From a virus (Duplodnaviria > Heunggongvirae > Uroviricota > Caudoviricetes): a stretch of 52,515 nt of DNA. This document shows positions 26,517 to 46,516 of the stretch, piece by piece (position 1 is the first letter of the stretch; each line of letters begins with the position of its first letter). The notes below the pieces were generated by a model. It was not told where the DNA came from, made no database searches, and saw nothing but the letters and a program-made list of their open reading frames with translations. Location of the stretch: positions 1 to 52,515 of the IMG/VR virus record IMGVR_UViG_2724679237_000006; one strand, written 5' to 3'. Made by a program: the position numbers and the translations under genes.

Positions 26517-29271
26517 GTTTTCGCTGGTCAGGCCACCGCAGCAGGTCTGCTTTGCGGCGGGCGCGTTCAGTGGTTTCACTGATTCTCTGTGCGTGCTCTG
26601 CGTCACGGATGGTGCGCAGCATGTCAGAAAGTACGGTAACGGGTGTTTTCATGGTGTTCTGGTCCTGCTGAATTGTGGATGCCAGGCGTGCGGCGGCTTC
26701 TGGGTCTGATGCCCCGAGCTGTTTCAGATAGCTGGAAACCGGGTTATGGCGGATTTCCGTGCTGTTTACGCCGTGATTACGGCTCAGGCGCTGCCAGAGT
26801 TGTGTGATTCGGCTGTCCGGTCGGGTATCCGGTTTACGTACAATTTCAAATCCCTGCGGTGCAATGATGCTGCCGTCAACGTACAGACTGCCGCCCCGTA
26901 ACAGGTGCTGCATCTGTTGTTCACCGATATGCAGGCCGAGAGATTCGGCAGACTCCCGCCATTCTTTAGCGAGTAACTCGTGGTTATCAGGCAAAGGCCG
27001 CGGCTGTTTGCGGCTCTGTGTCCAGTTCTGCATTTCATCACTGTTGTTTTTTGCCTGTTTGTCACGCAGCGAACGCATCAGCGCCCGGCTTTCGTGCCGT
27101 TTCAGTGAGCGCATCCATTCATCCACATCAACGCCGTCAGGAAGCTGCGGCCACGGTGCTGGCCGTTCTTCCGGCTGTTCTGTCCCGTTGTTGTCCGTTT
27201 CCTGTACACGGGGACAGTTATTGCCACGAGTCCAAGGGGCGGCAGGGCCGCCCTGAAGGTCAAAACCATTTTCGCGGGCGCTGTCTTCCGCTTCCGGTTT
27301 ACGTCTTACCAGCTTCCAGTTATCCGGGTGCGTGCACACGCGGGAAGACTCCCCGATTTGTGGCGACCAGATCCCGTAAATCTGTACGCTTTGCTCGCCG
27401 TAATCGTTCAGCTCTTCTGCGAGGTCGTAGGCGGTGCGAATCAGGTAATCCTTGCGTGGAACAAGTACGCCACCCTGTTTCTCAATGTAGGTGGCAAAAC
27501 ACCCGGCATCAGCGGCAGCGAGTACCGCATCCATTGCGTCATTTTCCAGACGTTGTGGACCTTCCGGGTTGCGGGCCATCTGACTGGCAAGGCGGCGGAG
27601 TTCACGCCATACTTGACGGGAGGGGATACCAAAGAACTGGAACTGGCGGACGCGGTGAAGGCGCGCCCAGCCGATGGCGCGTTCCACGCTCTCGGCCATT
27701 GATTTTCCGGTTTCGTGATCAACGCGTGGCTTGCCTGTTTTCGGGTCAATGCCATCCACGGCGCGGCTGTCCAGGTTCTTTCCGATGTAGGTGGCGATGT
27801 AGCTGGTCGGCGTACCTTTCGAACCGTCGACGTACTCTGCCTTAAAGCGCGGAGTTATGTCATTGCCCAGCTCGTGGCGGTCTTCGCGAATGGCAATATC
27901 ACGGGTGATGTCCACGATGCTGTCGATTTCTTCAGGATGTGCAAAGACCATCATGTGCCAGTGCACGGTGCCGTCATGGTGTGGCTCCACCGTGCGGATG
28001 CCATACCAGCGCAGGCCGTCGCGATTCAGTTTTTTGCGGACCGCCTTAAAAAAAGTGTTAACCAGGTAATCACTGGAATCGCGCATGGTGGCGCCGTTCC
28101 ATTTGGGATTCGGATGACCGTTCTCTGTTGTAGCGTGGTATTTTGACGGGCAGGTGACAGTCAGAAACACCGCTCTGTCGCCACGGGCTTCGGCCAGAAG
28201 TTCCAGTCCCTTCATGGTGGCCATCATTTCTGCCTTACGGTGGACCGGGTTACTTACTCCCGCGTAATACACTGTCTCGAGATCAATCGTGAACCCGTCT
28301 TCATTTTCCAGCATGAAACTTTTCAGGAAATCGCGTGTTTTCTCGCGCTGTGCGCGAAATTCACTTAATGCGTCCTGACTCAGATAGGGTGATGTTTTTC
28401 TGGAAACCAGACAGGCAGCGCGGAGTTGTTCCTCTCTCCATTCGCAACGTAAAAGCCACAGTTTGCGTTTCCACCAGTCCGCACAGGTCAGGCGGAGGAT
28501 TGCACCCGGCAGCAGTTCCGTGTCCGGTTCGTTCTTCCGGTCTTTGTCTGTTGTCAGTGCGTCATAATGCGGCGGCACTGTGTGCAGATGTAACGCCATG
28601 CGGGCCAGCATCTGATACGCCTTCAGCGTTATATCCATGGTCAGCTCGCCGTCGGTCGCGCCACAGCCATCGCAGAGTTTTTCGAAGGTGCTGCTGAACA
28701 TTGCCGCCGTCATGACGGCCAGCGTCTGTATCTGGTGCTTGTTGAGCTGTGGCAGGTACAGCAAATCGTCCAGACGTTCACGTCCGGCAAGGGAGCGATA
28801 ACCCGGAGTCAGCCAGCGACGGTCGGTGCGGGCCAGGCGTTCGAATATTTTGCGCAGGGTTCCGCTCGCATAGCGTTCCGCCTGCTGGTTCTTTTTGCCT
28901 TTCTGGTGGCCAGATTCCTGTTTTTTGCGCAGGAAAGAGAGATGGCGGATAAGCGGATCACGCAGATAGGACGGCAGCAGACGCAGCGAGGCCATGGCTT
29001 CATCCACCGCACCGCGTGCCTGCTTTCTGGCTTCTCTTGCCAGTGTGATGACTTTGTCCTGTTTTTCCTGTGCGTCCAGGCTTTTATTAATCAGATTGCC
29101 CAGTGGTGCAGCGGAGAACGCCGCATCAGCCATTTCCTGGCGGCGCTCGTTCTCTGCCCGGTAGGCATCCAGCCAGGAAGAAAGAAGGGAGGGGCGGACA
29201 GGCTCCCCCGTTCCCTCGCGACCGACTGCATGGCGTGGTTGTTGCCAGTCTCTGATGTACTCCGTTGCCAC
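26476..29271 (-). CDS. A: Replication initiation endonuclease, gpA-like (HUH rolling-circle initiator)
   Basis: 931 aa; HHDGTVHWHMMVF (HUH motif) and SYIATYIGKNLD (catalytic Tyr region) as in P2 gpA. Confidence 0.8.
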   Translation of the reverse strand: MATEYIRDWQQPRHAVGREGTGEPVRPSLLSSWLDAYRAENERRQEMADAAFSAAPLGNLINKSLDAQEKQDKVITLAREARKQARGAVDEAMASLRLLPSYLRDPLIRHLSFLRKKQESGHQKGKKNQQAERYASGTLRKIFERLARTDRRWLTPGYRSLAGRERLDDLLYLPQLNKHQIQTLAVMTAAMFSSTFEKLCDGCGATDGELTMDITLKAYQMLARMALHLHTVPPHYDALTTDKDRKNEPDTELLPGAILRLTCADWWKRKLWLLRCEWREEQLRAACLVSRKTSPYLSQDALSEFRAQREKTRDFLKSFMLENEDGFTIDLETVYYAGVSNPVHRKAEMMATMKGLELLAEARGDRAVFLTVTCPSKYHATTENGHPNPKWNGATMRDSSDYLVNTFFKAVRKKLNRDGLRWYGIRTVEPHHDGTVHWHMMVFAHPEEIDSIVDITRDIAIREDRHELGNDITPRFKAEYVDGSKGTPTSYIATYIGKNLDSRAVDGIDPKTGKPRVDHETGKSMAESVERAIGWARLHRVRQFQFFGIPSRQVWRELRRLASQMARNPEGPQRLENDAMDAVLAAADAGCFATYIEKQGGVLVPRKDYLIRTAYDLAEELNDYGEQSVQIYGIWSPQIGESSRVCTHPDNWKLVRRKPEAEDSARENGFDLQGGPAAPWTRGNNCPRVQETDNNGTEQPEERPAPWPQLPDGVDVDEWMRSLKRHESRALMRSLRDKQAKNNSDEMQNWTQSRKQPRPLPDNHELLAKEWRESAESLGLHIGEQQMQHLLRGGSLYVDGSIIAPQGFEIVRKPDTRPDSRITQLWQRLSRNHGVNSTEIRHNPVSSYLKQLGASDPEAAARLASTIQQDQNTMKTPVTVLSDMLRTIRDAEHAQRISETTERARRKADLLRWPDQRKQKTDRNGIHKSRK

Positions 29272-34588: not shown

Positions 34589-35605
34589 TCATTTTCTCTG
34601 GCCACCAACTACGGGCACTACTTTAACTTTCCGGTCATATGCTGCTGTCTGTCGCGGGTTCTTATGCCCGGAAATTGCTTGCTTCTCTTCCAGGCTGCCT
34701 TCCAGATCAGAGATACCTTTTGCTTTCAGATCATGAAATGTGAAGTCTATTTGCAGATGAGGATATTTTTCCTGTGCTGCCGCTTTGACATCACGCCAAC
34801 GAGAGTTAAAACCATCACGGGTATACTTGCCACCGGTAGTTTGATGAATCACAAACAGGCTACTGATTCCCGTTTTTAATGGCAGAGAACGAGCCAGAGC
34901 TATCGCTTTCTGCAGACGAGGCGACCAGGCTTTGATTTGCTTAACGCCGGTTTTTCCCTGACGAATGTAGATCCCGGAATCGAACAGCTGGTCTTTCTGC
35001 AATGAAAGTACATCACTCTGTCTGGCCACGCATAAGTAGGCAATCTCCATTGCTACGCGAACAACATCAGGAGACACTTCATAAACGGCCTGATATTCTT
35101 CATCCGTAATATAACGTTCGCGAGCTTTCTCTTTAAACTGTTTAACTCCCTGACAAGGATTCCTCTGAACATAACCTCGTTCATAACCCCAACGGAATAC
35201 CCGGGACATAAAGCTTTTTTCCCTGTTTGCCTGAGTTCGGCTTGATAAACCGCGTTGATCCATATAGCGCCGAATATGTTCAGGTTTGATTTTATCCGGG
35301 TCGATCTTCCCGAAGACAGGCAGAACTTTTCCGGAATATTTTGTGTAGTCTTTCCGGGTTTCGACTGCCAAATCCATAAAATCAGGGGAGGTCATGAATT
35401 GTTCCGTGAGCGCCTGAAAAGTATTTCTTTCTTTTTCGTCACCGACCGCTTTTTCATATGCCAGCCATACGGCTGATCGTGGTGCATCCAATGCGCACAG
35501 GCGTATCGCTTTGTTATCTTTATTCCTGAATTCGTAGGCCGCTTTGCCCTGGTAAACACGAGGCGGCATCCAGTTATCTGCTGGGTTCTTTCTCTTTCCG
35601 GCCAT
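34589..35605 (-). CDS. int: Tyrosine integrase (lambda Int family) of a second element
   Basis: ORF 34589-35635; N-terminal arm-binding-like MAGKRKNP..NWMPPRVY and C-terminal catalytic region (HDLKAKGISD...GH....TAAYDR). Confidence 0.85.
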   Translation of the reverse strand: MAGKRKNPADNWMPPRVYQGKAAYEFRNKDNKAIRLCALDAPRSAVWLAYEKAVGDEKERNTFQALTEQFMTSPDFMDLAVETRKDYTKYSGKVLPVFGKIDPDKIKPEHIRRYMDQRGLSSRTQANREKSFMSRVFRWGYERGYVQRNPCQGVKQFKEKARERYITDEEYQAVYEVSPDVVRVAMEIAYLCVARQSDVLSLQKDQLFDSGIYIRQGKTGVKQIKAWSPRLQKAIALARSLPLKTGISSLFVIHQTTGGKYTRDGFNSRWRDVKAAAQEKYPHLQIDFTFHDLKAKGISDLEGSLEEKQAISGHKNPRQTAAYDRKVKVVPVVGGQRK

Positions 35606-35837
35606 TAAATATTGCTCCAAAATCAGGTTCATCATCTTTTCGCGTCGTCACCTCCTGTAAATTGCGAAATTTTATTGGGTTCATGAAATGGCCCCAGGTT
35701 GTTTTTGGGTGTCCGTCAGCCCTTTCCATGAAGAAAATTCCAGCCCGGCGAAGAGCCTCACATTGCTTTGATTTAAGTGGGCTTCCCGTCAGCTCGACCA
35801 TTTCTTCTCTGGTGATTATGTCGTGATCGCTTTTCAT
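35574..35837 (-). CDS. Excisionase-like / small DNA-binding protein
   Basis: 87-aa ORF immediately upstream of and overlapping int; ITREEMVELTGSPLKSKQCEALRRAG is HTH-like. Confidence 0.4.
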   Translation of the reverse strand: MKSDHDIITREEMVELTGSPLKSKQCEALRRAGIFFMERADGHPKTTWGHFMNPIKFRNLQEVTTRKDDEPDFGAIFNGRKEKEPSR

Positions 35838-36027
35838 GGTCTTTCCTCATTATGTAGCTTATTGCGTCATCTGCCTTCTGGCAGGCACGGGCAATATCAG
35901 ACTCGGTCAAAGTCTGTTTCCTGACGCTGGCCGACAGTCGACCAATTTTGATATCAAATGCGGAGAGCAGAGTTGCTCCCGGTTGCCATCGCAGCATTGT
36001 GATCCTCCGGTGTCTGGTGAATCGCAA
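35773..36027 (-). CDS. Hypothetical protein
   Basis: 84-aa ORF. Confidence 0.3.
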   Translation of the reverse strand: MRFTRHRRITMLRWQPGATLLSAFDIKIGRLSASVRKQTLTESDIARACQKADDAISYIMRKDHEKRSRHNHQRRNGRADGKPT

Positions 36028-36046
36028 TGCTAGCGATGGTGAGTTT

Positions 36047-36229
36047 TTATTTCTGATTAGGCGTAATCAGTTCTTGTGGGGTGAATGCCGATTTCTCCCG
36101 AGTGACCTTAATGTTTTCTGGCAGGTGTAGCCCAAGTTCGCAGCGGCTCCGTGCTTCAATAATGCCATTGGTACCATCGGCAAGTACCAGGTGAACCGCG
36201 TCACCACGCTTTAATGTGAGTTTAAGCAT
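36047..36229 (-). CDS. Hypothetical protein
   Basis: 60-aa ORF. Confidence 0.3.
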   Translation of the reverse strand: MLKLTLKRGDAVHLVLADGTNGIIEARSRCELGLHLPENIKVTREKSAFTPQELITPNQK

Positions 36230-36798
36230 TAGCGTATCCTCAGTGACCGTTCGCCGCGTTCCATATGTGCGCCTGGTACCGGGTTTAATAACTCGGCTGG
36301 TGGTGTTTCTCCACGCGCCAGTATTTCGGCGGCAACCGCCTCCGCAGATTCAATCACTTCTTTAATGGCTCGCTTGTTTGGTGTAATAACCGTTTCTACA
36401 TCAACAAGTGACACACCCTCATACTCGTCCGGGATCTTATCTTTGTTATCAATAATTACCCGGATAGCCCCCTGTGCATCAGTAAATGTGTTTTTTGCGG
36501 TTTTCAGTTTATCCAGGCCAGCAGCTTGCAGGCAGGCGAGCATATGCTTTCGAATTGCTTTTTCCTTGCCTTCAAAGGACGTCTTACGGGTAGCCAGGCG
36601 AGACATTTCTTCAGCGCAGGTATTGGCATTGCCCTGTAAATTGCGGCAGATGACCATCATGACGTCCAGTTTGTCTCCCAGTTCTCCTTCCATACCTTCA
36701 AGCGTGTCGGCGATCATCTCTGGCGTCAGTTCGTCGGAGGTTTCCAGCAGGTCAATCAGGCTGACATATTCTTTTGCAATAGCGATAGCGGTGCTCAT
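36229..36798 (-). CDS. Gp157-like recombination-associated protein
   Basis: 189 aa acidic protein directly downstream of the SSAP gene; pattern resembles the Sipho_Gp157 family, from memory. Confidence 0.45.
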   Translation of the reverse strand: MSTAIAIAKEYVSLIDLLETSDELTPEMIADTLEGMEGELGDKLDVMMVICRNLQGNANTCAEEMSRLATRKTSFEGKEKAIRKHMLACLQAAGLDKLKTAKNTFTDAQGAIRVIIDNKDKIPDEYEGVSLVDVETVITPNKRAIKEVIESAEAVAAEILARGETPPAELLNPVPGAHMERGERSLRIR

Positions 36799-38507
36799 GC
36801 GGTTTGCTCCTGTGCAGCGGTGAGGGCGGCGAGGCGTTCAGTTTTGATGTCGGTGATACGGCGCAGGCGCGATCCCAGATACGATGAATATTCTTTATCG
36901 CCTTTGGCTTCTGCTGCTTTTCGGTGTACATCAACTTCGCGGGCGATGAGGCCAAATACCTTGTTTACTTCGTTGGTGGTTACCGCGGCGGCCAGCGTAT
37001 TGGCAACGTTGATCAGCTTCTCATCCAGTTCCTTACGAAGACGGGTAGCATCTTCCGCATTCTCGCTGGCATTCTTGATATCAAACTCAGCTTTATTCCT
37101 CTGGCGGTATTCCGGATTGTCGTACAGGCCCATGAAAATATCGGCGCTGAATCCGAGAGGGGATAGCGCTTTCTTAACAGCATCCGTCCAGGATTTCTTC
37201 GGCGCTTCGCCGTCGCTTGTTGGTCCATGTTTAGTATCGTAGATGTACGGAGTGCAACCGTAAGCCGCAGACTCGCCGCGCACCCCATTCAATATGTACC
37301 AGACTCTCACTTTCATGGTGTGGTGTATTTCACATAGGTACCCGCCAACACCGTCTTGAATCAGATCCCATTCTATTTTTTCACCAACCTGTTTTTTGCG
37401 AACTATCGGTGCGCCTTTATCAAAACGCTCTTCCAGCACCTCTACACCCCAGCCAATACCAAACGGCCCAAATTCGCGAGTCGCTTTCATCGCTATATAA
37501 GTGCCGTTGATGGATGTGCCGCCGCCATTCTGAGAGAAAGCACTGGTGAAGCGCTCATCGGTTTTGAATACGTTCTTCCACAATGCCAGGTTATCCGTGT
37601 CATCTGAGTCCTTTAACTCCGTTTCGATAGCTGAGATTGCATTCTGCCGCTTGTGCTCTTCGGTATGGATCCGCTCAACCAGCGCGTCAACGTTCTGCAC
37701 CAGATCCTTTACCTGCTCGCTAAGTTGTTCTTGTGGAGGAGTCTCTTCTGCCGGGGTAATAGCTGCAGGTTCCCTCTGTGATACGGCGTTATTTTCAGGT
37801 ACGTAATACACATGGCGAGGCGTGACAAACTGCTCACGCAACTGCTGCAAACTACGTTCTCCAGCATTCGCTGCTTCGCTTTTTTCGCCCTGATTTGAGG
37901 GTGTTTCTGACATCATCCCATCAATTGAGAATCGTCCGCCGCCGTGGTTGGTGACTTTTACATCATCCTTTGGTGCTGATTCCTTTGGCTTCTCTTCAAC
38001 AGCATTTGCATCACGCTGCCCGTTAGCTTGCAGCCAGTTGTCGATGTGACTGCGCAGGGATTGTGGGAAGTGGTACGTGTCTTTTGCGGGGGCGCTCTGA
38101 ATAACACCGAATACTGATGCGCGGTCATAGGCAAGGATCTGATCCGTTGTGCGCAAGGCCATTGACCAGCGTTTAAAATCTTCCCTGTCCTGACTGATTA
38201 TTTCGTCTGCCGCTTTCAGGATGCTGGGGGTGATTTTTTCCGGGACAACAGGTAACAGGGCGCAGGCAATTTCACGATCCAGTGTGGCGTGAGTCTGTTG
38301 GTAAGGACGTGCGGATGCTGTTTCTGGTTTTACCTCCGGCAGCATTTCATCGCGTTTACCGGGATTCTCTACCCATTTTTTTATAAATTTGGAGATAGTC
38401 CAACTGGTCGGGTTTTGTTCCTGGGTATCGCAACTTGCCAAAATTGCATGTACCAGATTATTCAATCCAGCAATATGCATGTACTCGATGGGCTTACACG
38501 CCACCAT
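36795..38507 (-). CDS. Rad52/Sak-like single-strand annealing protein domain within a long ORF
   Basis: 570-aa ORF; the C-terminal half (GTYIAMKATREFGPFGIGWGVEV...YGCTPY) resembles Sak/Rad52-family SSAPs; the N-terminal half is unassigned. Confidence 0.45.
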   Translation of the reverse strand: MVACKPIEYMHIAGLNNLVHAILASCDTQEQNPTSWTISKFIKKWVENPGKRDEMLPEVKPETASARPYQQTHATLDREIACALLPVVPEKITPSILKAADEIISQDREDFKRWSMALRTTDQILAYDRASVFGVIQSAPAKDTYHFPQSLRSHIDNWLQANGQRDANAVEEKPKESAPKDDVKVTNHGGGRFSIDGMMSETPSNQGEKSEAANAGERSLQQLREQFVTPRHVYYVPENNAVSQREPAAITPAEETPPQEQLSEQVKDLVQNVDALVERIHTEEHKRQNAISAIETELKDSDDTDNLALWKNVFKTDERFTSAFSQNGGGTSINGTYIAMKATREFGPFGIGWGVEVLEERFDKGAPIVRKKQVGEKIEWDLIQDGVGGYLCEIHHTMKVRVWYILNGVRGESAAYGCTPYIYDTKHGPTSDGEAPKKSWTDAVKKALSPLGFSADIFMGLYDNPEYRQRNKAEFDIKNASENAEDATRLRKELDEKLINVANTLAAAVTTNEVNKVFGLIAREVDVHRKAAEAKGDKEYSSYLGSRLRRITDIKTERLAALTAAQEQTA

Positions 38508-39007
38508 GGCATCAAGAACGATGCGGTTAAACGCGTCAACCTCTCCTCACTGTCAGTATCACTGTTGTCGAGCATCTCCAGGTATTCACGCGTCTGCGCA
38601 AGCAATTCACTGTCGACTTCGTTGGCGTCGTGGCTGAACAGCAGAACGGCGGCGAATCGTTCACGAGCCGGCAGTTTCATCAGGTCGTTAACTTGTGCGA
38701 TATCTGCTGAACCGCTATCTACAACGGGGGTGTTAACTACCCATTTTTCGCCATCAAAACTGTGTTCTGTGGCGAACGTCTCATCAAACTCACCAACGCC
38801 TGGGCGCGGTTGGCCCGGGGCATCTTCCCAGATTTTAGGTTTGAAATAGTTGTCGCCGTGGTCAGGGTAGGCTTCCCACAATTTGCCGATGATGATGTTC
38901 TCGGCAACTTTTTTGTTAGGGGCGTCGATGGCGATGGCCAGCGCCGGGATCGCGCCGTTTTTGAGCGCGCCTTTTTTCGCTTCTAACAAGCCGTTAAAAA
39001 TGGTCAT
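38462..39007 (-). CDS. Hypothetical protein (possibly the N-terminal part of the downstream gene)
   Basis: 181-aa ORF overlapping the next ORF by 46 nt in another frame. Confidence 0.35.
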   Translation of the reverse strand: MTIFNGLLEAKKGALKNGAIPALAIAIDAPNKKVAENIIIGKLWEAYPDHGDNYFKPKIWEDAPGQPRPGVGEFDETFATEHSFDGEKWVVNTPVVDSGSADIAQVNDLMKLPARERFAAVLLFSHDANEVDSELLAQTREYLEMLDNSDTDSEERLTRLTASFLMPWWRVSPSSTCILLD

Positions 39008-39037
39008 TGGTCTTTCCTCATTACAGGTCAGTGGTCT

Positions 39038-39358
39038 TTAGTAGGGGATTTCATCAGTATCTGGCGTGTATTCGATGCAAAGTAACTGCTGGATTTTGTC
39101 ATCGATAGCAGCAATACGCTGTTGGGCGTCGGCGACTGTTTTCTGTTTTTGTTCACGCAGTTGCTCGACCTGTAAACCGATGATGTCGATTGGCTGGGGC
39201 TGGTTGACGGTAATTTCAATTTCGCGGCTTTCCAGAAGGATGTACCTGTCTGGAAAATTTTTTGACATATCAACAGTCGCAACAAGCAGCTTTTCGTGGC
39301 TGAAAGTTGAAGTTGCATAATGAATAAAGAGTGTTACTGGGATGGTGCGCGCTTCCAT
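39038..39358 (-). CDS. Hypothetical protein
   Basis: 106-aa ORF. Confidence 0.3.
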   Translation of the reverse strand: MEARTIPVTLFIHYATSTFSHEKLLVATVDMSKNFPDRYILLESREIEITVNQPQPIDIIGLQVEQLREQKQKTVADAQQRIAAIDDKIQQLLCIEYTPDTDEIPY

Positions 39359-39505
39359 AGCGACTCCTTGGTAATGTATACTCAGAGCCGATCAGCGAAT
39401 ATTGATCAGCTTCCATAGCGTCAGTGTCGTTGGTCTTTCCTCATCACAAGTTTGGTCACTTGTGATAAATCCGAATGGTTTGGTCGCCGTTCGGGGTAAC
39501 TGGCC

Positions 39506-39530
39506 CGCCTTGTGCGGGTCTTTTGCTATC
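39506..39530 (+). terminator. Orphan plus-strand terminator-like hairpin
   Basis: cccgc-cttgt-gcggg followed by tcttttgct, with no plus-strand ORF upstream. Confidence 0.4.
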
Positions 39531-40204
39531 TAAAGGGTGCCGGTTACGTTTCCGGCGTCGTCATGTTTCCATCACGACCGTACAGGGCTGGTCTTTCCTG
39601 TTTTGAGCTGGTCAGGCTCATGGTCAACGCTGGTCAGGCGTGGTACTTCCTCCGGTCTTTCCCTGGTGTCACGCTGCGGGTTTGGCCTCTCCTGTTGGGG
39701 ACTCAGGCACAGCGATAAAACCTGGCTGTGTGAAAAAATGGCCCATCGTGCGGACTGGGCAAAGACTAAACACAGCAAATTGATGATGGGCGCCCGGAAT
39801 CGAACCGGGTAACGGGCAGGGAGTTCCCGTTAAACACCTGTTCACCACAACCGGGAGCGCACTCCGCCATTTCAAAATTTAACGACAAAGCTCAAAGTTG
39901 AGTCGATGAAGTGCGCTCTCGTGTTGTAGCCAGGACTCTTCCCTGGTGGTCACACCGTATCGCCTTGATGGTGAATCAATCGCTCATACCTGGCTGTGGC
40001 TTGCACATTCCGGCTACCTGCTATGGAGACAACGCGTTAAGGCTCCGCTTCCATCCAGACCGCTTCGACACATGTGCCATATGCCGGTGAAGTCTTTCCC
40101 TCTGTCATCGTGCTGTCGGCGACCCGAAGAATTAAGTTCCGGGATTTTTCAACACGCCCGGTCGTGCTACCTTTAATGCCCACACAACAAAAAAGGATTT
40201 TCTT

Positions 40205-40438
40205 ATGTCAGAGCTTGAACAACTTAAAGATGAACTGGCTTTACTTAAAAAGGAGCTAAAGTCTCACCAGGTAATACTGTCTGCGTTGGTTGGTCGTATG
40301 AGCTACGAGGAGAAATCCGACCTATCAAAGCATGTTGCAAAAGCGAAATCAGAGCTTTATCCGGGTGATGATTTCAGCCTGGGAATATTCAATAAGTTGC
40401 TTCTAGTAACTGATTACAAACCGATTCCCAGAAAGTAG
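40205..40438 (+). CDS. Small coiled-coil protein (hypothetical)
   Basis: 77-aa ORF (ELEQLKDELALLKKELK). Confidence 0.3.
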   Translation: MSELEQLKDELALLKKELKSHQVILSALVGRMSYEEKSDLSKHVAKAKSELYPGDDFSLGIFNKLLLVTDYKPIPRK

Positions 40439-40613
40439 CCTCATCCATTTGCGCGCCATCAAACTTATCGATGGCGCCACTTAATATCGCAAGAACATCA
40501 CCTGCATCCTTAGCGTTGAGTTCACCCGAGATCTTGCGAAGATTCTCGACCAAGGCCAAAGCTACTGGACCAACGGCACTTCCTGCCGCAATTGAAACCT
40601 TACGAAGTTCCAT
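40389..40613 (-). CDS. Hypothetical protein
   Basis: 74-aa ORF downstream of the repressor gene. Confidence 0.3.
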   Translation of the reverse strand: MELRKVSIAAGSAVGPVALALVENLRKISGELNAKDAGDVLAILSGAIDKFDGAQMDEATFWESVCNQLLEATY

Positions 40614-40764: not shown

Positions 40765-40800
40765 GCAATGCATTGAAAACATTGCCTTTATTTTATTTTT
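40765..40800. terminator. Bidirectional terminator at the 3' end of the repressor gene
   Basis: Stem aaggcaatg / cattgcctt followed by tattttattttttgg; A/T runs on both sides. Confidence 0.65.
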
Positions 40801-41206
40801 TGGTGGGGGTTAGTTTCTTTCTGGTAACCAGTAACTCTTCAAATAAACGATTAAAGTTTTCAACTTTATCTTCTAATTCAATTAGTTGCTTTTCTTTTTC
40901 TGACTCGGGTAATGAATCAAATAACTCTAACAATCTTTTTTGACGTGAATCCAGCTCTGTTGGTAATTCGTCTACCGGAGTTGGCGCCTGGTCTTCGTCA
41001 CCAAAAAGCAGCCATGTGGCAGAACACTTAAGTGCATTGGCCAAAGCCAGCAAGTTCTGACCCTTTGGTTCATTTTGTCCGCTTTCCCATTTAAAAACGC
41101 TCACACTCGATCTTCCAACCATATCAGCAAGCTGTTGTTGGGTTAGACCAAGCTGTTTGCGTCTTTGAGATAAACGGTCGCTAAGCATCAAATTCTTCAT
41201 CCTCAT
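40793..41206 (-). CDS. CI-like repressor, XRE-family HTH (no S24 peptidase domain)
   Basis: 137 aa; LTQQQLADMVGRSSVSVFKWESGQNEP HTH; divergent from a Cro-like gene. Confidence 0.75.
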   Translation of the reverse strand: MRMKNLMLSDRLSQRRKQLGLTQQQLADMVGRSSVSVFKWESGQNEPKGQNLLALANALKCSATWLLFGDEDQAPTPVDELPTELDSRQKRLLELFDSLPESEKEKQLIELEDKVENFNRLFEELLVTRKKLTPTKK

Positions 41207-46292: not shown

Positions 46293-46516
46293 ATTGACTT
46301 AGAAAAAGTCCGGGGCTATAGTTTCCGCGCAGCCGCAAAATCGGTTGCCGGGATTGGCGTCCCGGATATCTAAGTGACGCATAGCCGCGTTAGCGGTTTT
46401 TTTATGTGTTAGGCACGGCCACATTCGCATTATGGTGGGCTGTGTGGGGGCTTCTGTGGAAGCGCCGGGTTCACTTAGCCGGTTACGCCAACCCTGCACA
46501 GCTCACCACCAGATGA

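Follow-up and report, generated by a model that had tools for sequence, protein, structure and literature searches.

A conserved pseudoknotted RNA in the untranslated early-left leader of an Escherichia coli prophage

The 840 bp at 39360-40200 of the window (the whole 52,515-nt stretch of DNA analysed here) are the untranslated leader, on the minus strand, of the repressor-controlled early-left (PL-type) operon of an E. coli prophage. The leader is a chain of RNA modules: an element that we call E, a hairpin (H), a variable cargo slot, and a module resembling the 3' part of RprA that carries a strong intrinsic terminator (Table 1). A further ~370 nt of untranslated RNA lie between the terminator module and the first early-left gene, which encodes a 106-aa protein matching phrog_2479 and is followed by exonuclease, xis and int. 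The opposite (plus) strand of the leader encodes a candidate small RNA of three hairpins that ends in a terminator. E (39925-40090) is the most conserved element of the region, and is a previously undescribed, strongly conserved pseudoknotted RNA. From its position, and by analogy with the put RNAs of phages HK022 and HK639, we propose that E may be a put-like cis-acting antiterminator or anti-Rho leader, a reading to which we assign a probability of roughly 40%.

Table 1 Features of the leader and its surroundings (window coordinates)
Feature	Position	Strand	Details
5' UTR of 106-aa early-left gene	39359..39424	-	RBS AAGGAG, ATG at 39358
Candidate antisense small RNA, three hairpins	39425..39528	+	single-stranded GUUGGUCUUUCCUC, H1, H2, H3
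H1	39443-39466	+	loop UUGGUC
H2	39471-39494	+	loop UUUGGUCG
Terminator H3	39502-39520	+	U run 39521-39524
Conserved unstructured block	39590..39730	.	from alignments; fold z ~0 on both strands
RprA-3'-like module	39731..39780	-	UUGCUGUGUUUAGUCUUU, then intrinsic terminator
Intrinsic terminator GCCCAGUCCGCACGAUGGGC	39741-39760	-	U run 39733-39738
Degenerate tRNA-like cargo	39781..39848	-	T arm 39793-39809 perfect
Cargo 6-bp hairpin	39812-39832	-	9-nt loop containing U-CCC
Hairpin H	39848..39926	-	16-bp lower stem, variable insert enclosed
H lower stem	39910-39926 with 39848-39863	-	CAACACGAGAGCGCACU with AGUGCGCUCCCGGUUG; one bulge, one mismatch
Element E	39925..40090	-	165-nt RNA, five helices and pseudoknot
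E P5 hairpin	39930-39946	-	loop GAAGAGU
E pseudoknot	39970-39973 with 39953-39956	-	CACC with GGUG
E P4 hairpin	39965-39979	-	loop UUCACCA
E P3	39981-39999	-	variable
E invariant single strand	40000-40010	-	GAAUGUGCAAG
E P2	40011-40062	-	CGGU/GCCG plus CYGG/CCRG, 3-nt GUA bulge, variable hairpin enclosed
E P1 hairpin	40066-40086	-	loop GCA

An initial annotation, made from the letters alone, had described the region as structured and non-coding, without recognizing it as the leader of a repressor-controlled early-left operon. The three individual features that it singled out are where it placed them and exceed chance, and its statement that no convincing ORF spans the region agrees with our searches, in which no ORF there had family support (Pfam, PHROG). 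The minus-strand fold of the whole region had a z-score of -4.3. The two database checks that it had suggested came back empty: ARAGORN reported 0 tRNAs, and Rfam 15 placed no curated family at the gathering threshold within 39360-40200. The only Rfam families above threshold, isrK and C4, lie ~6 kb from the region, and the only sub-threshold matches inside it were to RprA (37 bits, cut-off 70) and tRNA-Sec (19 bits, cut-off 47). RNase P RNA, tmRNA, Y RNA, known ribozymes and riboswitches were dropped as candidates, having neither an Rfam match nor matching conserved motifs. A lack of Rfam and tRNA hits was to have counted against small RNAs or a tRNA-derived remnant; yet the region clearly encodes structured RNA, so such a lack is no valid test.

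The structure of E was derived from an alignment of seven phages and from a 57-sequence alignment (A2). Paired states made up 95.6% of cells, with 12 compensatory pairs, in which both sides had changed, and 150 double-change cells. When the registers were slid, 28–43% of cells were paired, and 0 of 500 shuffles matched the observed score. The covariance model R1 found a single copy of E in the window, scoring 134 bits (E = 4.5e-40). The single-stranded segments of E are invariant across very different phages; no Rfam family matched the element, and a literature search on its invariant 19-mer returned nothing relevant. E is a real RNA of the minus strand, as shown by its strong covariation, by the tRNAs adjacent to it, all of which lie on its strand, and by the U.G pairs of H, which are acceptable in the minus sense only. 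That 39911-40090 instead encodes a small protein, as a 59-aa plus-strand ORF, is extremely improbable. Its boundaries do nearly coincide with the conserved block, and many homologues keep a stop-free frame, but the distances between invariant blocks take all values modulo 3, with no single frame kept across homologues. The ORF also lacks a Pfam or PHROG match, its substitutions follow the pattern of paired RNA stems, and neighbouring genes and tRNAs are on the opposite strand.

Adjoining E on its 3' side is H, whose strand pairs were drawn from 53 loci. Counted on 23 distinct versions, 92.9% of cells were paired, with 5 compensatory pairs and 22 double-change cells. H is long enough for an RNase III substrate and is possibly an RNase III site; a homologous hairpin, located upstream of E, carries the annotation 'RNaseIII mRNA processing' in phage epsilon15 (NC_004775). 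The 3' end of H adjoins the first base of the cargo, and at other loci a tRNA 5' end follows H directly. The cargo of the window contains the minus-strand T-arm-like sequence of the initial annotation (CCCGG-TTCGATT-CCGGG, 39793-39809), which in RNA form has a loop of the GTTCRANNC type expected of a T arm (CCCGG-UUCGAUU-CCGGG). The remainder falls short of a complete cloverleaf: as had been noted, a canonical acceptor and D arm are absent, with a 4-bp acceptor-like pairing (GUGG/CCAU) in place of a 7-bp acceptor stem, no D arm, a 9-nt loop in place of a 7-nt anticodon loop, and the end AUCA in place of CCA. The sole match of the cargo in the tRNA clan was tRNA-Sec (19.3 bits against a cut-off of 47), its fold was no better than that of shuffles (z = 0.17), and the segment is absent from BUCT708-type relatives. 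An intact tRNA gene was rejected, with ARAGORN negative and the tRNA models far below threshold. The earlier suggestion of a tRNA-derived remnant gains ground in that the T arm sits within a degenerate tRNA-like segment, in the slot that holds a genuine tRNA-Arg(UCU) in related phages; the cargo is probably a decayed tRNA gene.

Beyond the cargo lies the RprA-like module, to which the Rfam RprA model (RF00034) aligned with 37.4 bits (E = 0.018, cut-off 70). The alignment covers the 3' half only, where it is nearly identical and where model positions ~60-108 are convincing; a full RprA homologue was rejected on this partial match and its sub-gathering score. As in RprA, the 3' 45 nt are nearly identical to the consensus (UUGCUGUGUnUAGUCUUUGCCC plus terminator and U tail). 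Unlike RprA, the module lacks the 5' two-thirds, is phage-borne, ends a much longer transcript and is found in only a subset of E cassettes. Comparison of the window with the BUCT708 type shows covariation in the terminator stem of the module, and 24 of 149 distinct loci carry the motif UGCUGUGUGUAGUCUU. This terminator is the only strong one on the minus strand between PL and the early-left genes or int, and a scan of 34589-39358 found no further strong minus-strand terminator. Literature searches on prophage RprA-like sRNAs returned nothing relevant, and papers on Pas sRNA and anti-sRNA concern loci other than the present one.

On the plus strand, the initial annotation had noted a dyad and a terminator-like hairpin and had guessed at one or more small RNAs. 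Both features are real. The dyad is an inverted repeat of 9 bp without mismatch (39443-39451 / 39458-39466), its arms 6 nt apart, which contains the 8-bp version originally noted, and the hairpin reads GGCCCGC-CTTGT-GCGGGTC followed by TTTT (39502-39524). The terminator described as an orphan shares one covarying three-hairpin unit with the dyad (39425-39528). To that extent the small-RNA guess was borne out, although it missed the main element, E. The plus-strand fold of 39425-39530 reached -41.9 kcal/mol (z = -4.7), and the minus-sense fold was 10 kcal/mol weaker. The H1 stem exists in four covarying versions, with pairing kept in all of them around a conserved TTGGTC loop; H2 has three stem versions and two compensatory pairs; and every wobble pair in H1 and H2 is G.U on the plus strand, equivalent to C.A on the minus strand. 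Three UUGGUC motifs in the unit are complementary to GACCAA within a translation-initiation sequence shared across the phage (GAGGAAAGACCAAUG), which was found at four gene starts and has 11–15 nt of complementarity to the unit. In a ranking of trans duplexes in the window, the exonuclease start was the second-best site after 26251, which pairs with the H2 region; the ranking is too noisy to demonstrate targeting. A promoter scan for the unit found none. From its sequence, we consider the unit a candidate antisense sRNA that apparently originated when a target site was duplicated. It is like C4 (P1/P7) and sar (P22) in being short and hairpin-rich with its own terminator, and in having loops and a single strand complementary to phage ribosome-binding regions. 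It differs from C4 in that the Rfam C4 model has no match at the unit; the real C4 lies at 46428-46513.

Between the plus-strand unit and the terminator module, the block at 39590-39730 shows ~92% identity between relatives whose overall identity is 71%. It contains TGGTC (GACCA on the minus strand) about every 21 bp, together with Shine-Dalgarno-like copies of GGAAAGACC; TGGTC occurs 10 times in 700 nt (Poisson P ~9e-8), and the copies with ~21-bp periodicity lie in 39589-39654. Coding of the block is ruled out because of a 1-nt indel. The block also holds a natural CRISPR protospacer, identified by a spacer match. We rejected iterons, CsrA sites and boxB-like protein sites as explanations of GGAAAGACC and TGGTC, whose signal is at least in part the ordinary Shine-Dalgarno-plus-spacer sequence of this phage and duplicated gene starts. 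In the 5' UTR of the 106-aa gene, part of the gene start is present a second time (39408-39427 resembles 39350-39369; repeats D2 and D5), and by alignment this duplicated piece is absent in BUCT708-type relatives.

Such duplications raise the question of whether the region is mainly decayed DNA, made up of a dead tRNA gene, duplicated gene starts, old ORF remnants and incidental hairpins. We regard this, a weak form of the earlier tRNA-remnant suggestion, as very unlikely. The tRNA-like piece is indeed degenerate and dispensable, there is a 26-nt duplication of a gene-start region besides the duplicated start (repeats D2 and D5), and close relatives differ by insertions and deletions. However, compensatory substitutions and near-invariant loops are maintained in E, H and the plus-strand hairpins across hundreds of phages, and the block at 39590-39730 is better conserved than the neighbouring genes. 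The covariation counts contradict decay for E, H and the plus-strand unit, and at most the tRNA-like piece and the duplicated starts could be explained by it.

E is present in at least 170 viral contigs, in 660 of 5,426 E. coli genomes and in phages P1, P7, D6 and SPN1S. In 8 of 18 sampled loci, a same-strand gene for a CI/LexA-like repressor (220-240 aa) lies directly upstream, ending 90-150 nt before E, and recognizable -35/-10 promoters are found 7-120 nt upstream of the element. The closest relatives of the window (ST131 type, GF131, BUCT708) have the repressor gene followed directly by E. In the window itself the predicted PL is ~600 nt distant from E, and a plus-strand gene (phrog_20080) intervenes. 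In P1, E lies unannotated between trnI and ban, inside the C1-repressed ban operon, with ban immediately after it and no terminator in between; a literature search on a P1 ban leader RNA found nothing relevant. Phages of the epsilon15 type have an annotated repressor site upstream of E, and epsilon15 survives deletion of most of the element while a second terminator remains. In SPN1S-type phages the E unit resembles a self-contained moron, running from a promoter to two terminators.

Downstream of E, strong terminators follow at 200-650 nt in at least 67 of 149 distinct loci, counts that are lower bounds because the simple terminator finder misses imperfect stems. The median coverage by same-strand ORFs is 0.68, compared with 0.38 on the antisense strand. 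E is invariably found with long untranslated RNA, for example tRNAs or sRNA-like modules, and no Rfam family matched the cargo RNAs at related E loci. A same-strand tRNA lies within 125 nt of E, at fixed distances, in 43 of 127 loci. In P1-type loci a tRNA lies 16 nt upstream, and tRNA-Arg(UCU) follows E by 60 nt in ~27 loci. Neither a tRNA nor a tRNA-like cargo accompanies many other copies, those of the BUCT708 type and of mEp390 being examples.

These associations bear on the possibility that E cleaves itself as a ribozyme, or serves specifically to process or stabilize a neighbouring tRNA or sRNA cargo. There are known examples of tRNA-associated ribozymes in phages, and the fixed tRNA distances, together with an H that ends exactly at the tRNA 5' end, would suit such a role. 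We nevertheless consider it quite unlikely: tRNA 5' ends are already made by RNase P, many copies have no such tRNA or tRNA-like cargo, and the known small self-cleaving ribozymes fall far short of E in size, with no match to it among Rfam ribozyme models.

Several of the observations support antitermination. The position of E after the repressor gene is that of nutL and putL; in P1 it lies in a C1-repressed operon, and in epsilon15-type phages downstream of a repressor site. Terminators and co-oriented ORFs follow it, and the only strong terminator between PL and int in the window comes after E. We found no N-like protein, as the ORFs between cI and E had no antiterminator family match (Pfam, PHROG), and E is accompanied by long untranslated RNA. 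The base-helix sequence that P1 of E has in common with put stem I, and the lambda-like order of modules, also speak for this reading. Following this logic, E would fold on the nascent transcript soon after initiation and act in cis on the transcribing RNA polymerase, as do the HK022 and HK639 put RNAs. The modified elongation would resist the intrinsic terminator at 39733-39760, as well as Rho over the long untranslated stretch, so that the early-left genes would be expressed without an N protein. Cleavage at H, if it is an RNase III site, and by RNase P at the 5' end of the cargo would then cut the leader into discrete RNAs, and the plus-strand RNA may pair through UUGGUC with the GAGGAAAGACCAAUG starts of several early genes, damping their translation.

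Other observations weaken antitermination: the ~600 nt and intervening plus-strand gene that separate E from the predicted PL in the window, the absence of a terminator between E and ban in P1, the survival of epsilon15 without most of E, and the self-contained appearance of the SPN1S-type unit. The larger size and the pseudoknot of E, the failure of its covariance model to detect put sites and the lack of conservation at the G35 equivalent also count against it. Flanking processing hairpins would, moreover, suit a released trans-acting RNA equally. E with H could accordingly be a processed, stable non-coding RNA that acts in trans as a decoy, sponge or scaffold for a conserved host factor, its place in the leader simply giving early, repressor-controlled expression. 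We think this doubtful, though by no means negligible. Signals for processing flank E (an H-type hairpin before it, after it or in both places, an upstream tRNA, or a tRNA directly after H), its invariant single strands persist across very different phages, the SPN1S-type unit runs from promoter to terminator, the tolerance of epsilon15 to loss of E is what would be expected of an accessory function, and the context resembles that of GOLLD and ROOL. On the other hand, the PL-proximal position in many independent lambdoid lineages and the co-oriented genes fit action in cis at least as well, and the Rfam GOLLD and ROOL models gave no match.

The same leader position would also suit a riboswitch-like sensor, in which the pseudoknotted core would bind a tRNA or a small-molecule ligand and adjust early-left read-through to host physiology. 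The conservation of E is of the kind typically seen in aptamers, combining a pseudoknot and covarying stems with invariant nucleotides at the junctions, and E lies in a 5' leader directly after promoters with a terminator downstream. This reading is unlikely, however: E is overlapped neither by a closing helix nor by terminator and antiterminator pairings that exclude each other, and 170-600 nt, including H and the cargo, separate it from the nearest terminator. The diversity of contexts (PL leader, interior of the P1 ban operon, tRNA morons) argues for a generic role, and no Rfam riboswitch family matched.

To our knowledge, HK022 and HK639 are the only lambdoid phages lacking N for which the passage of early terminators has been explained. 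No such explanation is available for many N-less prophages, among them those of pandemic E. coli ST131, and the presence of E at the nutL/putL position in hundreds of them makes it a concrete candidate for the missing mechanism. A broader proposal, which we put forward only tentatively and hold to be less probable than antitermination itself, is that E founds a new class of polymerase-modifying leader RNAs (for processive antitermination or anti-Rho activity), larger than and structurally distinct from put. Hundreds of enterobacterial temperate phages, including P1, would use E for repressor-controlled early operons that start with long untranslated RNA such as tRNAs and sRNA modules. An sRNA mimicking RprA would be set free from the same leader, and an antisense RNA with several targets would lie opposite it. 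If so, the PL leader would be an RNA-only regulatory hub. The RprA-like module and the candidate antisense RNA complementary to the shared start sequence suggest further phage-host and phage-internal RNA regulation. Should E not be an antiterminator, it would still be a widespread, highly constrained phage RNA linked to phage tRNA genes.

Among known systems, GOLLD and ROOL are structured, conserved non-coding RNAs of prophages, often found beside tRNA genes and of unknown function. E is likewise structured, conserved, phage-borne and tRNA-associated; GOLLD and ROOL are 3-5 times its size, belong to other bacterial phyla and show no similarity to E in sequence or by Rfam model. The lambda PL transcript runs from PL through nutL, whose boxA and boxB work with N and Nus factors, to an RNase III site in the N leader, and the E leader has the same order of promoter, RNA element and long RNase-III-type hairpin. 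P5 of E, a 5-bp hairpin with a GAAGAG loop, is loosely reminiscent of boxB, and some variants of H have a boxA-like 3' strand (UGCUCUUU). In contrast to lambda, the boxA-like sequence of E phages lies inside the covarying helix H and is weak in the window, the prophage has no N-like gene, and E is far larger than a nut site.

The put RNAs (putL and putR of HK022, putL of HK639) are cis-acting, factor-independent antiterminators that bind the zinc-binding domain of the RNA polymerase beta' subunit. Both put and E are found just downstream of a repressor-controlled early-left promoter in N-less lambdoid phages of enterobacteria, ahead of terminators. The base helix of the first hairpin is identical (CGGCG/CGUCG with a preceding A; in E P1, ACGGCG...CAUGCGUCG), and a pattern derived from E matched HK639 only at putL, and HK022 at putL and one other site. 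Covariance model R1 had no match at HK022 putL, HK022 putR or HK639 putL, even with filters off; membership of E in the put family was rejected, since its model misses the put sites and it shares only the base-helix sequence of stem I. Highly conserved unpaired nucleotides are present in both RNAs (PMC9378689). In put, an A9-G35 platform forms at the stem junction and G35 is essential (PMC9378689), whereas in E the equivalent of G35 is not conserved, the nucleotide after P1 being A, C or U in alignment A2. Finally, put measures ~70 nt with two stems, and E ~165 nt (2.5 times larger) with five helices and a pseudoknot, and E is also found in P1 and in podovirus morons, adjoining tRNAs.

The window belongs to a lambdoid prophage of E. 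coli, and the 951 bp around the region studied here (39360–40200) are 95–99% identical to chromosomal DNA in 475 of 5,426 complete E. coli genomes, SE11 and ST131 strains included; in SE11 the prophage adjoins tRNA-Ser/mtfA. The flanking gene order identifies the region as the untranslated head of an early-left operon, read in the minus-strand direction from a PL-type promoter. Family searches of the window's ORFs found no protein like lambda N. In the closest relatives (the ST131 type, GF131 and BUCT708), the non-coding stretch comes immediately after the repressor gene. The window has an extra segment between the two, with a plus-strand 77-aa gene inserted between PL and E (the conserved RNA described below) and missing in close relatives. 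RefSeq annotates an overlapping 74-aa minus-strand ORF without a family (40389–40613); of the two, the genuine gene is probably that on the plus strand. A frameshift, through decay or sequencing error, divides the exonuclease gene into overlapping ORFs of 181 and 570 aa; SE11 has one 738-aa coding sequence.

Features of the window, by position, and parts of the conserved RNA E
Feature	Position	Strand	Description
Left-flank genes		minus	int, DUF4224 protein, Gp157-like protein, exonuclease, 106-aa protein
Exonuclease gene	36795–39007	minus	phrog_2489
Plus-strand unit	39425–39528	plus	three hairpins, H1–H3
Dyad (H1)	39443–39451 / 39458–39466	plus	perfect 9-bp repeat
Terminator-like hairpin	39502–39520	plus	followed by a T run
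Conserved block	39590–39730		unstructured, non-coding
Protospacer	39623–39654		ATG PAM directly before
RprA-like module	39731–39780	minus	UUGCUGUGUUUAGUCUUU + terminator GCCCAGUCCGCACGAUGGGC-U6, after cargo
Cargo	39781–39848	minus	68-nt tRNA-like piece
T-arm-like sequence	39793–39809	minus	CCCGG-TTCGATT-CCGGG
Helix H	39848–39926	minus	folds in the window
E	39925–40090	minus	165-nt pseudoknotted RNA
E helix P1			CGGCRUAUG-GCA-CAUGYGUCG
E helix P2			CGGU/GCCG + CYGG/CCRG, GUA bulge, variable hairpin enclosed
E single strand			GAAUGUGCAAG, invariant
E helix P3			variable
E helix P4			loop UUCACCA
E pseudoknot			CACC of P4 loop with downstream GGUG
E helix P5			loop GAAGAGR
77-aa gene	40205–40438	plus	phrog_20080 over full length, E = 6e-37
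CI-type HTH repressor	40793–41206	minus	right flank
Cro		plus	right flank
CII/YdaT-like protein		plus	right flank
isrK, c4-a1b1, C4 antisense RNA	46316–46513	plus	immI module

At gathering thresholds, Rfam matched only isrK, c4-a1b1 and C4 antisense RNA, which are a P1/P7-type immI (ant-control) module within the lambdoid prophage, and nothing in the region, where the initial annotation had proposed small RNAs. Permissive thresholds added there only RprA (37.4 bits, cut-off 70; 39731–39841, minus strand) and tRNA-Sec (19.3 bits, cut-off 47). On either strand the 841 nt folded better than shuffled sequences (z = −4.3 for the minus strand, −2.5 for the plus).

Sensitive BLAST gave 70–79% identity between 39915–40086 and unannotated DNA of unrelated phages: SPN1S and Tyrion (Uetakevirus), mEp390 (lambdoid), SopranoGao, P1, P7, D6 and SJ46. 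In a seven-phage alignment of this element, E, the segments between invariant blocks vary and stay complementary. An invariant 19-mer, GGTAGCCGGAATGTGCAAG, matched at least 120 IMG/VR contigs, and a second, degenerate pattern ~50 more. In a search of one genome per species the 19-mer was restricted to Enterobacteriaceae and Erwinia, the genera including Escherichia, Citrobacter, Klebsiella, Kosakonia, Enterobacter, Kluyvera and Buttiauxella. BUCT708 (OM816834, 'Stenotrophomonas phage vB_SmeS_BUCT708') has its whole int-to-helicase early region, E included, in common with E. coli prophages (~71% DNA identity); its recorded host is questionable, because E is otherwise found only in Enterobacteriaceae and Erwinia.

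The structure of E was derived from an alignment (A2) of 57 non-redundant copies, in which 95.6% of cells are paired, against 28–43% in control registers slid by 1–3 columns. Twelve pairs have both sides changed (150 cells), for example in P1 (G-C 31, A-U 24), P2 (C-G 33, U-A 23), P4 (C-G 38, G-C 16) and the pseudoknot (C-G 49, A-U 7), and the covariation score was reached by 0 of 500 shuffles. Set against this covariation, the region's being junk DNA is very unlikely. The covariance model built from A2 finds a single copy in the window, at 134 bits (E = 4.5e-40). Coding was ruled out: the spacings of the invariant blocks take all values modulo 3, and ORFs of neither strand have a family. That the conserved stretch encodes a small protein is scarcely credible. 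The sense of E is that of the window's minus strand, because the 43 tRNA genes nearby all point the same way as E and because wobble pairs in E and in H, the long hairpin directly 3' of it, are tolerated in that sense only. In the PL sense, both E and H are RNA structures under selection. Since E has no Rfam family, its invariant sequence found no match in the literature, and the P1, SPN1S, mEp390 and E. coli RefSeq records have no annotation of it, E appears to be an undescribed RNA family. Its invariant single strand and pseudoknot could be those of a riboswitch, which we consider improbable.

H begins directly after P5. Its strands, CAAC-GAUGAGAGCA (5') and UGCUCUCAGC-GUUG (3'), enclose an insert of 38–173 nt and are 92.9% paired among 23 distinct versions, with five compensatory pairs. 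Epsilon15-type phages have an H-homologous hairpin before E, which the epsilon15 record annotates as an RNase III processing site ('RNaseIII mRNA processing'); that E itself is a ribozyme or processing element is a shade less probable than a riboswitch. Exactly where H ends, a cargo starting with GUGG begins, and its content varies among phages: a bona fide tRNA-Arg(UCU) in about 27 loci, almost nothing in BUCT708-type phages and, in others (among them L005, L013, L015, L019 and L020), a 100–150-nt RNA that has no Rfam family and whose acceptor-like ends are GUGGUGA...UCACCACA. The L013 RNA has an anticodon-like loop, CUUUUAA, that would read as Lys UUU; L015 and L019 carry an isrK/c4-a1b1/C4 module ~2 kb from E in opposite orientation.

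The T-arm-like sequence first reported as a possible tRNA remnant is present in the window's cargo, as a perfect T arm with one more hairpin (9-nt loop). The D arm and CCA end are absent, the fold is no better than shuffles, and ARAGORN detected no tRNA or tmRNA across the whole window. A cargo tRNA that has decayed is the best account of the piece, in line with the remnant first suggested. The module after it nearly reproduces the 3' end of the RprA consensus and was found again in 24 of 149 distinct loci, with a covarying stem.

Of 18 sampled loci, eight have a CI/LexA-type repressor (220–240 aa) as the closest gene upstream on the same strand, its end 90–150 nt short of E. At 7–120 nt upstream of helix P1 there are clear sigma-70 promoters with operator-like palindromes flanking them. 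A strong intrinsic terminator stands 200–650 nt after E in at least 67 of 149 distinct loci, an undercount; in the window, no strong minus-strand terminator other than the one ending the RprA-like module separates PL from int. Over the 2.5 kb after E, median co-oriented ORF coverage is 0.68, against 0.38 on the antisense strand. E and H occupy the nutL/putL position in many N-less prophages, ahead of untranslated RNA and a terminator. P1-type plasmids carry E 16 nt after tRNA-Ile(CAU) and ~90 nt before ban. The copy in phage P1 itself (locus L210, 2419–2602; NC_005856, 71020–71203) is full-length and scores 143 bits. It has trnI on one side and ban on the other, in an operon under C1 repressor control, and is unannotated among 535 features; three tRNAs and a stretch annotated as a 'dicF-like region' belong to the same operon. 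Epsilon15 has an annotated repressor site upstream of E, and of E itself it retains (locus L209, NC_004775, 1403–1572) no more than the initial ~50 nt, joined to the 3' half of a terminator; this is a deletion of the remaining E, H and tRNA-Arg, all kept in SPN1S.

Farther along the leader, the conserved block is ~92% conserved between relatives 71% identical overall, and TGGTC recurs in it at ~21-bp intervals, with ten copies in 700 nt (P about 9e-8). Its protospacer exactly matches a 32-nt spacer in a type I-E CRISPR array of E. coli SBF22 (NZ_CP067235) and has a PAM; natural immunity therefore targets this block. The dyad was correctly recognized, and so was the plus-strand terminator-like hairpin, but the latter is no orphan: the two form one unit of three hairpins (−41.9 kcal/mol, z = −4.7), whose complement is 10 kcal/mol worse. 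H1 has an invariant loop, UUGGUC, on four stem versions (AUCACAAGU, GGUGUAAGG, CCGUAGGG and CCGCAGGG), H2 has two compensatory pairs, and all wobble pairs in H1–H3 are G.U on the plus strand, where the minus strand would give C.A. Wobbles, fold and covariation therefore point to a candidate plus-strand RNA with its own terminator, antisense to the PL leader; a promoter scan detected no promoter for it. Single-stranded GUUGGUCUUUCCUC and two loops are complementary to GAGGAAAGACCAAUG, the Shine-Dalgarno-to-AUG sequence of four phage genes (42038+, 44696+, 39017− and 35846−), and duplex ranking of targets was noisy. From this complementarity, the unit can reasonably, if tentatively, be read as a C4/sar-like translational repressor. 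The four genes lie in both early operons and have the initiation sequence GAGGAAAGACC(A/G)AUG in common; start-less GGAAAGACC copies are dispersed in the PL leader (40099, 39662, 39598 and 39440). The unit appears to originate from a 26-nt duplication (repeat D5) of the exonuclease start region (39003–39028 vs 39426–39451, 88% identical, AUG to ACG). The 106-aa gene start is also duplicated (39350–39369 vs 39408–39427), the copy being missing in BUCT708-type relatives.

Our best reading, to which we give a probability of roughly 40%, is that E, like put, the antiterminator RNAs of HK022 and HK639, works in cis on RNA polymerase, with processing of the leader. Transcription would then pass the terminator and continue across ~700 nt of untranslated RNA. 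RNase III and RNase P would cut H and the tRNA-like structures, and the RprA-like 3' piece might be freed as an Hfq-type sRNA. RNA-mediated early antitermination would in that case gain a new structural variant in E. The put-like reading is weakened because put homology failed, phage P1 has no terminator after E, epsilon15 has lost most of E, and E lies ~600 nt from the predicted PL in the window. Beside these points stands the rather unlikely alternative that E is released and acts in trans.

HK639 has an annotated putL-like RNA, and we located HK022 putL and putR by sequence. None of the three was picked up by the E model, including in unfiltered runs on short stretches, which places E outside the put family. 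For a pattern made from E P1 variants, the sole match in HK639 falls where putL begins; HK022 has two, one likewise where its putL begins and one elsewhere. The first putL hairpin (HK639, locus L128, 34187–34312; HK022, locus L129, ~28230–28303) starts with ACGGCG and ends with CAUGCGUCG, the base of P1 in E. Put has G35, whereas E has no conserved G at the equivalent position in A2; what the two share is A-CGGCG...CGUCG, the base helix of put stem I, beside the A9-G35 platform for the beta' zinc-binding domain (PMC9378689).
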